Source of the DNA: Fibrobacteria bacterium
GTDB taxonomy: Bacteria > Fibrobacterota > Fibrobacteria > UBA11236 > JADFYW01
Reading direction: 5' to 3'
Assembly (NCBI GenBank): GCA_015232855.1
Contig: JADFYW010000005.1
Span: 19,926-83,925, forward strand
Length of the DNA stretch: 64,000 bases
The translations under genes and the position numbers were made by a program. The notes beneath the pieces were generated by a model. That model did no database searches and was not told the DNA's origin. It worked only from the letters and a program-made list of their open reading frames with translations. This document shows, one piece after another, positions 18,831 through 21,341 of this stretch; position 1 is the stretch's first letter, and the number at the start of each line of letters is the position of its first letter.

Positions 18831-19688
18831 ATGAAAACCCTAGTAGATTGCTTTCCCTGCTATATTAATCAGGCACTAGACGGTTCCAGAACCGTTACTT
18901 CTGATGAATCAATTCAAAAAAAGGTACTGGACGAAACGGTAAAAATGCTTCAAAATCTGGATTATAACCGCGTCCCGGCAGAAACCGGAGCCGAAGTTTT
19001 CCGTATCATCCAAAGGGTTACCGGAAACAGCGACCCTTACCTGGAAGTAAAAAACAGATTTAACAACTTTGCCCTGGAATTAGAAACAGCCCTGCGGAAA
19101 AGAATTAAAGACTCAGAAGACCCGTTTATCACTGCCGCCTTATTTGCCATCACTGGCAACATCATTGACTTCGGTATCGGTGGTGGCATCAATGAAGAAC
19201 GGGTACTGGCAGAGCTACAAAATATTGCCCGGGAAACCGATGTTATTTCCAATCTGGAGCAACTTAAACAAAGTACAATAAAAGCAAAACAAATCCTCTA
19301 TATCGGAGACAATGCAGGAGAAATTGTTTTTGACAAACTCTTTGTAGAAAGACTAACACCCGCAAAGGTGACCTTTGCCGTTCGGAGTGAACCAATCATA
19401 AATGATATAACCATGAAAGATGCTCACGATGTAGGACTCACGAGTTTAGTGGAAGTAATCCCCAGTGGTTCTTGTATTCCGGGTACACTCGTTCAAAACT
19501 GTACAACTGAATTTCAGGACCTCTTTTATCAAGCAGATGTAATCATCTCAAAGGGTCAGGGAAACTACGAAACCCTTCACCATGAAAAAAGACCTGTTTT
19601 CTTTTTACTAAAGGTAAAATGCCCCACAGTGGTTAAAACCCTGGGAAAAAAATTAGGCGATGTAATGTGTATTGTCCCGGAGATATAG
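18831..19688 (+). CDS. DUF89 family protein (damage-control phosphatase ARMT1-like)
   Basis: Motifs CFPCYINQAL, SDPY, AITGNIIDFG, YIGDNAGEIVFDKLF, ISKGQGNYETL and FFLLKVKCPTVV follow the DUF89 pattern. Confidence 0.85.
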   Translation: MKTLVDCFPCYINQALDGSRTVTSDESIQKKVLDETVKMLQNLDYNRVPAETGAEVFRIIQRVTGNSDPYLEVKNRFNNFALELETALRKRIKDSEDPFITAALFAITGNIIDFGIGGGINEERVLAELQNIARETDVISNLEQLKQSTIKAKQILYIGDNAGEIVFDKLFVERLTPAKVTFAVRSEPIINDITMKDAHDVGLTSLVEVIPSGSCIPGTLVQNCTTEFQDLFYQADVIISKGQGNYETLHHEKRPVFFLLKVKCPTVVKTLGKKLGDVMCIVPEI

Positions 19689-19692
19689 TTAT

Positions 19693-19735
19693 CAGTTGTC
19701 AGTCATCAGTCGTCAGTAATCAGTAATCAGTAATC
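19693..19735. repeat. tandem heptamer array (CAGTNNT x6), left arm of inverted pair
   Basis: CAGTTGT CAGTCAT CAGTCGT CAGTAAT CAGTAAT CAGTAAT C, starting 5 nt after the DUF89 stop. Confidence 0.9.
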
Positions 19736-19906
19736 AAATTGAACTGTTTTCTTGAGATAAATAAAAGCATAACACGTTATATCAGAAAAAAATAAAGTGA
19801 CGGATATAGTGTCTTTTCAAAAGTCTTTAATTCAAAGAAACCAAGTGTTCAACAACGAAGAAATAATGACTGAGTTTTATATATTATTTACGTGAAACGC
19901 ATTATT

Positions 19907-19948
19907 TTACTGACTACTGACTACTGACGACTGACGACTGATTACTCA
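19907..19948. repeat. tandem heptamer array (TGACNAC-type), right arm, reverse complement of left arm
   Basis: TTAC TGACTAC TGACTAC TGACGAC TGACGAC TGATTAC TC, ending 5 nt before the stop of the minus-strand gene at 19953. Confidence 0.9.
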
Positions 19949-19952
19949 TCCC

Positions 19953-21341
19953 CTATCTAACAAGCAACTTATCCGTTCCTGAATACAGAGGAGATTGAAC
20001 ACTGATAACATACACACCTGGTTTTATGTGCCCAAGGTAAAAAAGAGCGCCAGGTGCCTTTATAAATTTTGAGAAGACCGACTGTCCGGAAATATCATAG
20101 ATGCGGAGTGCCACTCCACCCCTGCGAAGGGTAAAAAACATCTGTTTATTTTTTTTTATCTGGTTCACACTCCATGCATAATAAGGTTTTGTCTGTTCTT
20201 CTAAATCCCAGGCCGTGGCTACGGGCTCTTCATTCTGTATCTTTAAGAGTGCTGGGCTGCTGGTATCACTACCTGCACTGTTAGATACTATCACATCATA
20301 CACTGCACTATCGTCTTCAGCTTCAACTGAAGTGATAAAGAGCTCCTTCCCAGAAGCATTCGGTATGTCTTCACCATTTTTACGCCATTGAATCCGGGGT
20401 TCTGTTCCGGTAATATTGATATAAAACACAGCGGACTCTCCTCTGGCCACAGAAGCCGACTTTGGCTGCACCAGAATGGATACCGGCGCAGTAATGGTGA
20501 TACTCGTGGTAATCGCATAATGATCTGAATAGAACCTGAACGATTTCTTATCATTAAGAATATGTGCATTAGTAACTTCCAATCTTTCACCCCAAACCAG
20601 TATGTAATCTATTGGAGAACCTTTGGTTTTACCAGACCAACGATGGAAGGTGGCTGCCTCAGTCTCATGGGGATAGAGCTCTCTGAAGGAATGTGAAAAT
20701 TGAAGAGGAGAATCATCACTCTCCATTAGGTACTTCATCGCAGGACTGTTCTCTTCTGAGTTACAATCACAGGTTAAAATCACCCTGTCTGCCTGGTTTT
20801 CTCTTTCTCCAATTTTTTTCCCAATGACACGGGAGGCCTGTTCACGGGCATAATCAGAATGATGGCTGTAATGACTGTTATAAAAATAAAAATGTATGCC
20901 TGTTTCGATTTCTCTGAATCGTGCCCAGGTTACAATACGGGGTAATACCGCACCAATACCGATTGAACCGGGTTCATCCGGTGTAAGTGAAAGCCAGAAC
21001 GTACCTGAGGTGTCCACATCAAAGAGAGCGTTCTGATATACTATAGGACAGTATTCTCCTGCGGTATCACCATCAATACGACCCACACCAATTGATGAGT
21101 AATTGGGATTAGATCTGATGAGTTCTTCAAGCTGATAGAGATTAACTTCCTGAAGCCCGGCAATATCTGGTTTAACATCTGATAAAAGCTTGAATACCAG
21201 TCCTTTACGTTTATTCCAATCTTCGAGATCTGTTCCATTTTTGATATTGAATGACATAAGATCAAGATCCAGGCTAAACGCTGGTAGTGTCCCCAGCACC
21301 ATAATCAGAAAGATAAAAAATCGTTTTTTCATAACTATCAT
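19953..21341 (-). CDS. secreted endonuclease/exonuclease/phosphatase (EEP) family protein with Ig I-set-like domain and T9SS-type C-terminal domain
   Basis: Signal MKKRFFIFLIMVLGTLPAFS. EEP motifs SFNIKNG, DIAGLQEV and YSDHYAI. Ig-like segment PKSASVARGESAVFYINITG...IQWRKNGEDI...DSAVYDVIVSNSAGS. C-terminal domain ALRIYDISGQSV...IKPGVYVISVQ. The start may instead be ATG 21332. Confidence 0.8.
   Translation of the reverse strand: MIVMKKRFFIFLIMVLGTLPAFSLDLDLMSFNIKNGTDLEDWNKRKGLVFKLLSDVKPDIAGLQEVNLYQLEELIRSNPNYSSIGVGRIDGDTAGEYCPIVYQNALFDVDTSGTFWLSLTPDEPGSIGIGAVLPRIVTWARFREIETGIHFYFYNSHYSHHSDYAREQASRVIGKKIGERENQADRVILTCDCNSEENSPAMKYLMESDDSPLQFSHSFRELYPHETEAATFHRWSGKTKGSPIDYILVWGERLEVTNAHILNDKKSFRFYSDHYAITTSITITAPVSILVQPKSASVARGESAVFYINITGTEPRIQWRKNGEDIPNASGKELFITSVEAEDDSAVYDVIVSNSAGSDTSSPALLKIQNEEPVATAWDLEEQTKPYYAWSVNQIKKNKQMFFTLRRGGVALRIYDISGQSVFSKFIKAPGALFYLGHIKPGVYVISVQSPLYSGTDKLLVR

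Follow-up and report, generated by a model that had tools for sequence, protein, structure and literature searches.

The short tandemly repeated repetitive (STRR) heptamers of cyanobacteria were reportedly described by Mazel et al. in 1990, and several published STRR units include CAGT. In proteobacteria, the REP, BIME, and REPIN elements are short intergenic repeats, found singly or as inverted doublets that fold into hairpins after stop codons. Their halves occur in mosaic combinations, and in the cases studied the upstream mRNA is stabilised.

According to a statement in PMC4679880 that cites Mrazek (2007), heptamers outnumber all other long simple-sequence repeats in many prokaryotes. Hairpins formed by the cyanobacterial STRR heptamers are known, e.g., from the region between hupS and hupL, and they also lie close to the 3' end of the preceding gene; the roles proposed for them are in transcript stability, translational coupling, and termination (PMC2670836). 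Direct repeats of the unit TAACTGA have a sporadic distribution, being found in marine Beggiatoaceae, some cyanobacteria, and five Bacteroidetes. They are intergenic, form sets of 2-6 copies, and contain stop codons in the "forward" reading (MacGregor, 2015; PMC4679880). In Beggiatoaceae, nearly all the sets are direct, only one is inverted, and they lie just upstream of start codons (PMC4679880). The proteins S1, Csp, or CsrA have been proposed for these repeats, and the distribution of XisH was found to resemble theirs (MacGregor, 2015; PMC4679880). A further heptamer, GGGNATC, was analyzed in Xanthomonas and Nostoc; it prefers four units and, on the sense strand, lies no more than 50 bp from stop codons (Rehm et al., 2015; PMC4692102).

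The two arrays of the window

The window, herein the whole 64-kb stretch of DNA analyzed, is part of contig C306 of an assembly of 5.38 Mb in 350 contigs that is about 80% complete and has many arrays on short contigs. It contains seven CAGTNNT units on the + strand opposite six units on the - strand, with a 171-nt spacer between them. The left (entry) arm, located at 19686-19734 (C306:39611-39659, + strand), consists of TAGTTAT, CAGTTGT, CAGTCAT, CAGTCGT, CAGTAAT, CAGTAAT, and CAGTAAT. Its degenerate first unit includes the stop codon TAG (19686-19688) of a gene for an ARMT1-like/DUF89 damage-control phosphatase (ORF at 18831-19688, + strand; Pfam: PF01937, E 1e-64). The right arm, located at 19906-19947 (C306:39831-39872, - strand), consists of GAGTAAT, CAGTCGT, CAGTCGT, CAGTAGT, CAGTAGT, and CAGTAAA; on the + strand it appears as ANNACTG units, which place TGA in all three frames. 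The end of this array is 5 nt from the stop codon (19953-19955) of the opposing gene, which encodes a secreted endonuclease/exonuclease/phosphatase-family protein with Ig domains (ORF at 19953-21341, - strand; Pfam: PF03372, Exo_endo_phos, and PF07679). Tandem Repeats Finder assigned period 7 to both arrays, with 7.1 and 5.6 copies. A three-unit CAGTNNT pattern (at most one mismatch) had nine matches in the window, all within the two arrays, versus 0.00 expected from 100 shuffles.

With the arms aligned at their inner ends, there are 3 differences in 34 positions between 19700-19733 and the reverse complement of 19907-19940, and longer registers agree at 86-88% over 36-43 nt. At all three differences the left arm has A and the right arm has G, so that they become G-U pairs in the - strand RNA. 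The spacer (19735-19905, 27% G+C) has no second copy in the genome and contains no nested repeat. Its sole ORF (19797-19895, + strand; GTG start, 32 aa) is probably spurious; the rest of the genome contains no homologue of it. Comparison with 52 CTTCG-bearing copies from the same genome revealed a decayed inner core at 19891-19905 on the - strand, ATAATGCGTTTCACG versus the family form AAAATGCGCTTCGCG, with two changes within GCTTCGC. No such remnant was found inside the left arm. A search of the region against Rfam 15 gave no match at the gathering score, the only hit being a spurious miRNA model with 22 bits against a gathering score of 211. In the strain and orthologue comparison, no record was found for the exact protein, the best metagenome relative was 46% identical, and relatives showed no synteny.

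Folding of 19685-19955 gave -74.2 kcal/mol for the + strand, versus -45.7 ± 4.3 kcal/mol for shuffled sequences (z -6.58), and -86.6 kcal/mol for the - strand (z -7.43). These predicted energies support a long stem that would be thermodynamically real on either transcript. The structural claims of the preliminary description are borne out by these results: inverted heptamer arrays do bracket the gap between the two genes, their arms match over about 35 nt with three A/G mismatches, the spacer is AT-rich and 171 nt long, and a stem of about 35 bp is predicted for both transcripts at energies far better than those of shuffled controls. A role as a bidirectional terminator, also proposed there, agrees poorly with the flanks of the stem. 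No U- or A-tracts were found there (gagata and catcccc), so the stem is not a classical intrinsic terminator. The scan of the window arms for terminators gave no terminator-like site, and the combination of a G+C-rich stem with a U-tract after it and an A-tract before it was not found at either arm.

Arrays in the genome: anatomy and position

In the whole genome, a four-unit pattern (at most one mismatch) had 158 matches, versus 10 for the reversed-pattern control. In total, 103 arrays of at least three units were found, with a sharp mode at five units (53 arrays). Neighboring arrays at most 600 nt apart form 31 inward pairs (CAGTNNT, then ANNACTG), one outward pair, and three tandem pairs, and 41 of the 103 arrays are solo. 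The gaps between arms range from 24 to 370 nt and cluster at 42-53 nt; whole elements are 87-433 nt in size. The window locus is one ordinary copy of this family of about 100 copies, which is of the heptanucleotide STRR/TAACTGA type.

Five positions of the unit CAGTNNT are fixed, making up an invariant TCAGT pentamer, and two are free. The second most common unit is CAGTTAT, with 55 units. Array borders are sharp, only the unit immediately outside an array scoring above background, and for this reason the idea that the arrays fade into coding sequence was rejected. Adjacent units agree at the free positions in only 19.7% of cases (12.9% expected), so the arrays are not simple microsatellites. 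Inside most arrays, a short A/T linker is followed by TG[G/C/T]GCTTCGC, and complete elements add an A/T-rich loop and then GCGAAGC. In 52 of the 103 arrays, a CTTCG motif lies at most 28 nt from the inner end; in 51 cases its polarity agrees with that of the array, and in one it does not. The pair flanking GCTTCGC co-varies (C-G, T-A, G-C) and is Watson-Crick in 28 of the 52 arrays, versus 13.0 expected from column compositions. This covariation indicates a real mini stem-loop in each half, with a TTC loop (GAA on the other strand). The heptamer d(GCGAAGC) is well known as an unusually stable DNA mini-hairpin.

Positions relative to genes were taken from a crude long-ORF heuristic rather than a full annotation. 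For 49 of 100 arrays, the outer end and the stop codon of the gene transcribed into the array are at most 15 nt apart (mostly -6 to +6), and this stop codon is often inside the first unit (TAGTNNT or CAGTAAT). Seven arrays are as close as this to a start codon; around the inner ends, the same 15-nt limit captured no gene end at all. Exit arms stop 1-100 nt short of the next start codon, which leaves space for a leader. Of the 31 inward pairs, co-directional genes flank 23, convergent genes 6, and divergent genes 1. The arrays are mostly intergenic, and only a few of them overlap long ORFs.

These positions bear on two functions that could be assigned to the window copy in particular: bidirectional intrinsic termination of the canonical type, and phase variation through a contingency tract for its two flanking genes alone. 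Either is very improbable. The strong stem between convergent genes would suit a terminator, but the flanking tracts are missing, the terminator scan is empty at the arms, and 23 of the 31 family pairs lie between co-directional genes. The number of units does vary between paralogous or orthologous loci, as a contingency tract would require, but the non-identical units, with five positions fixed and two free, disfavour high-rate slippage. Nor would the gain or loss of a unit alter any reading frame, given that the arrays are found outside coding sequence and promoters. The slippage-prone contingency element considered in the preliminary description is accordingly unlikely.

Period 7 is strongly over-represented in this genome. 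Arrays with at least 3.4 copies number 192 for period 7, versus 30, 22, and 19 for periods 6, 8, and 9, respectively. About 100 of the period-7 arrays are built on other units: GAATTAT, TAAATCC, GATTGAA, GATTAAC, AGCTATT, and TCTCTCC/GGAGAGA. In these six non-CAGT families, inward pairs with a constant polarity for each family were found in all the paired loci that were read (about 2-8 per family). Examples are C52:5125-5247, C237:1243-1493, C318:7100-7258, and C192:40-244, as well as C278:1916-2016, C313:19608-19806, C58:10815-11096, and C336:6478-7111. The GAATTAG element at C318:7100-7258 shares the AAAGTGGCTTCGCA core with the CAGT family. The arms of the TCTCTCC/GGAGAGA type extend to 15-21 units.

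The fixed architecture could also be explained by periodic sites for a protein that binds single-stranded RNA or DNA, such as TRAP, Csp, S1, or Rho, with the inverted pairing being incidental or serving to mask the sites. Five invariant positions beside two free ones, sharp borders, the preferred length of five units (35 nt), the frequent solo arrays, and the strict orientation relative to transcription are all consistent with such sites, and S1, Csp, or CsrA has been suggested for the TAACTGA repeats (MacGregor, 2015; PMC4679880). We nevertheless regard this explanation as quite unlikely, because no candidate protein was found and because heptamer families with unrelated units share the same architecture in this genome. 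XisH had no match in the window genome or in 40 relatives, in a search run without a positive control.

Copying, mobility, and distribution

An identical 35-nt arm was found on contigs C199, C229, and C326, where the loops and flanks attached to it differ; its core is common to one copy and its outer flank to another. The paralogous loci on C146 and C31 differ by one unit and by unit substitutions. The recurrence of one arm with different partners and the difference between C146 and C31 show that half-elements act as modules, being copied to or exchanged with other loci in the manner of a REP/BIME-like mosaic, and that the arrays are remodelled in 7-nt steps through gain and loss of units. At C11:61007-61346, two near-identical heptamer hairpins are found 203 nt apart, with 95% identity over 120 nt, which points to the recent local duplication of a complete element and its flank.

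Neither a recurrent ORF nor small genes were found in the long loops, which instead contain nested palindromic repeats that are unrelated. The second palindromic family of the genome, nested in this way, has the form CCGTCACTTCGAGTA..CCCG..CGGG..TATCGAGAAGTCAAC and produces BIME-like mosaics. Examples of long elements with nested palindromes in their loops are C146:1089-1423, C146:2953-3243, C337:10435-10679, C41:8507-8876, and C282:2084-2171. A third palindrome, AGTCATTCCGG..CCGGAATGACT, was found in loops of C108 and C144.

No target-site duplication flanking the terminal inverted repeats was found: the longest flanking direct repeat is 3.65 nt, versus 3.68 nt for the null, values that still allow a 2-bp duplication. 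The genome has two Y1 transposase genes (Pfam: PF01797), and neither a heptamer array nor the GCTTCGC motif was found within 900 nt of either. The link to RAYT/IS200 was rejected for this reason. The intervals between distant inverted arrays on C111 and C336 contain no transposase and only ordinary genes, so an autonomous element between such arrays was rejected as well. The search for an enzyme mobilising the arrays found no candidate. At C190:2203-3460, an IS200-type Y1 transposase gene adjoins a frame of the reverse-transcriptase/group II intron type, an assignment made by reading the sequence; no heptamer arrays are associated with this locus.

These results bear directly on a miniature transposon of the MITE or foldback type, whose terminal inverted repeats would be transposase-binding heptamer arrays mobilised in trans. 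The fixed polarity of every heptamer family in the genome, the small size of the elements (87-433 nt), and the identical arms at unlinked sites could be explained in this way, as could the lineage-specific burst of copies and the conservation of arms across phyla with lineage-specific loops, both described below. We consider such a transposon unlikely, since it would be expected to move as a whole, whereas the halves recombine independently, and its insertion would have to be tightly bound to stop codons. In addition, the missing target-site duplication, the two Y1 transposase genes without flanking arrays, and the lack of a transposase between distant inverted arrays count against it. The initial suggestion that the window locus is the remains of a small foldback element comes close.

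Outside the window genome, arrays are essentially absent from 40 relatives of the same family, order, and class. In a survey of the phylum, any four-unit match was found in only 27 of 296 genomes, none of which approaches the load of the window genome. On this genome comparison, the burst of copies is shown to be confined to the lineage of the window genome. In a Fibrobacter-like genus, an orthologous locus has the order stop-(GAGTNNT)4-core-(ANNACTG)4-AAA-ATG, with unit-level differences among close species. In one Fibrobacter-like genus, loci L230-L233 of four species (e.g., G153:C2:40395-40422) carry the array CAGTTGTCAGTCGTCAGTTTTCAGTTGT, which is identical in six species of the genus.

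The array together with GCTTCGC was found at more than 110 loci in Acidobacteriota, Planctomycetota, Verrucomicrobiota, Chloroflexota, Cyanobacteria, Clostridia, Bacteroidota, and Proteobacteria. At these loci, neighboring arrays form 34 inward pairs and one outward pair, and 39 outer ends versus 9 inner ends are near stop codons. Four of the genomes carrying this combination have 39-165 three-unit matches each. A near-identical sequence of about 27 nt, ATTGCTTCGCT(AA/G)CGCTCGCAATGAC, follows CAGT arrays in two phyla, at L057, L091, and L093 of a Dysgonamonadaceae MAG and at L097 of a Chloroflexia MAG. The acidobacterial sample comprises 20 loci of one of these four genomes, taken from the first array matches listed and not chosen by core. 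In these loci (L264-L283 of the Pyrinomonadaceae MAG G296, reached via L077), CAGTNGT/CCGTGGT arms enclose a conserved loop of about 35 nt with GCTAAAGAT, which is present in either orientation. The two orientations suggest either that an element can insert whole in both directions or that loop inversion occurs. Since all 20 loci carry a different core, GCTTCGC was rejected as a universal core; the cores are lineage-specific, and the arms are the common part. The core-specific pattern had just three matches in viral contigs, and a link to phages was rejected. No arrays were found in 80 unrelated metagenome loci.

The wide occurrence of the arms could be given a more speculative explanation, which we hold to be rather improbable. 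CAGT-heptamer arms would be a conserved recognition module with multiple sites, resembling terminal inverted repeats, carried by non-autonomous hairpins across phyla and recognised by a trans-acting enzyme specific for period 7, which would copy the hairpins in half-units and put them on the first nucleotides after stop codons. The loops and cores would then be lineage-specific additions, GCTTCGC mini-hairpins in the window genome and GCTAAAGAT in the Pyrinomonadaceae genome. If true, this would give the decades-old STRR puzzle a single enzymatic cause.

Proposed function of the hairpins and comparison with known repeat systems

On balance, we favor the explanation, with confidence slightly better than even, that the window copy consists of two stop-anchored half-elements, one on each of two convergent genes, that these are modular copies of the REP type, and that they would provide a hairpin at the mRNA 3' end. 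Each half-element is composed of an array of about five CAGTNNT units, a short A/T linker, and a mini stem-loop xGC-TTC-GCx', with its outer end on the stop codon of the gene transcribed into it or a few bases away. Two facing half-elements would make up one imperfect long hairpin. Since each convergent gene has its own stop-anchored half, the inverted arrays bracket the gap around a unique spacer. In the mRNA of either flanking gene, the arms would pair as 5-bp helices with 2-nt mismatches between them, and the resulting 3' stem-loop would be an obstacle to 3'-exonucleases and to read-through into the opposing gene. The halves probably spread as selfish REP-like modules, giving each mRNA an imperfect 3' hairpin; the function of this hairpin is a predicted one. 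Several points count against this explanation. The five invariant positions and the very tight stop-codon anchoring are left unaccounted for by a purely selfish repeat, no mobilising enzyme was found, the window copy has no clear core on its left arm, and the arms, as described below, bear no visible mark of selection for a perfect RNA stem.

Alternatively, the elements may be primarily selected RNA structures, i.e., intercistronic or 3'-UTR hairpins for mRNA stability, attenuation of read-through, or stop-start coupling, with copying being secondary. This is possible, at a probability well below even. The entry arm begins at a stop codon, and between the exit arm and the next start codon there are 1-100 nt, or 3 nt to the ATG in the Fibrobacter-like genus, as expected for such hairpins, and the same roles have been proposed for the cyanobacterial STRR hairpins (PMC2670836). 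In co-directional contexts, the sense strand of the family elements folds 4.0 kcal/mol better than the antisense strand (Wilcoxon p 0.021). This advantage weakly supports a role at the RNA level, and it may be an effect of spacer composition. Selection for a perfect RNA stem is not visible in the arms, however. Complementarity across the family is 0.71-0.89, of which the fixed positions alone give 5/7 = 0.71; at the NN positions, paired arms have a complementarity of 0.51, versus 0.54 ± 0.03 for random arm pairs, and thus no compensatory pairing was found, and the arm mismatches have no G-U bias toward the sense transcript (18 versus 14). Moreover, a long stem is impossible for the 41 of 103 arrays that are solo, sister genera with the same kinds of genes are without the elements, and the convergent window copy has no downstream start codon for coupling.

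The likeness to cyanobacterial STRR heptamers pointed out in the preliminary description is correct. The genome search for CAGTNNT revealed further occurrences in abundance, and the paired inverted arrangement, rather than being special to this gap, is standard for about 100 arrays of the genome and in many phyla. Nor is such an arrangement at gene ends undescribed, in view of the STRR hairpins (PMC2670836) and of the stop-proximal, strand-specific heptamers (PMC4692102). The window locus alone is ordinary for its genome; the class of heptamers to which it belongs has been without explanation for more than 30 years. For annotation, heptamer arrays should be masked as repeats and not taken for small RNAs, CRISPR-like arrays, or terminators.

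Like the cyanobacterial STRR sequences, the family of the window comprises dispersed, multicopy, intergenic 7-nt tandem units that are capable of forming hairpins near the 3' end of the upstream gene, and the over-representation of period 7 agrees with both the STRR and the long simple-sequence repeat definitions. It differs from STRR in its host, an uncultured member of Fibrobacterota, in the degenerate unit CAGTNNT instead of a single fixed heptamer, and in the defined GCTTCGC mini stem-loop core that follows the array; in addition, inward polarity and stop-codon anchoring are given in numbers here. The TAACTGA repeat is a reverse-complement rotation of CAGTTAT, one of the units of the family. 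Since CAGTTAT is merely one of several NN variants, only a subset of the units corresponds to TAACTGA. In contrast to the TAACTGA repeats, the arrays form mostly inverted pairs and abut stop codons in the other orientation: 49 arrays are stop-abutting in the reverse orientation, and only 7 are near starts, where forward TAACTGA repeats would be expected. The GGGNATC repeats are likewise heptameric, have a preferred small unit number (four versus five), and are under-represented between divergent ORFs, but their unit is G-rich and forms a quadruplex, whereas CAGTNNT has no G-tract and pairs between arms. The REP, BIME, and REPIN elements share with the family their occurrence as single copies or inverted hairpin doublets, the mosaic of halves, and the position after stop codons. 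Unlike REP sequences, in which the unit itself is palindromic, each half of the family consists of a direct tandem array and a mini-hairpin, and the repeat-flanked RAYT (Y1 transposase) gene of the REP/REPIN systems has no counterpart here. Thus, heptamer hairpins form a class that is already known and not yet explained, for which polarity, stop anchoring, the free NN positions, the covarying core, and the modular halves are quantified in this study. Polarity, which recurs in many phyla, anchoring, the fixed and free positions, the core, and modularity together limit the mechanisms that can be considered and specify the target that any binding protein or copying enzyme has to recognise.
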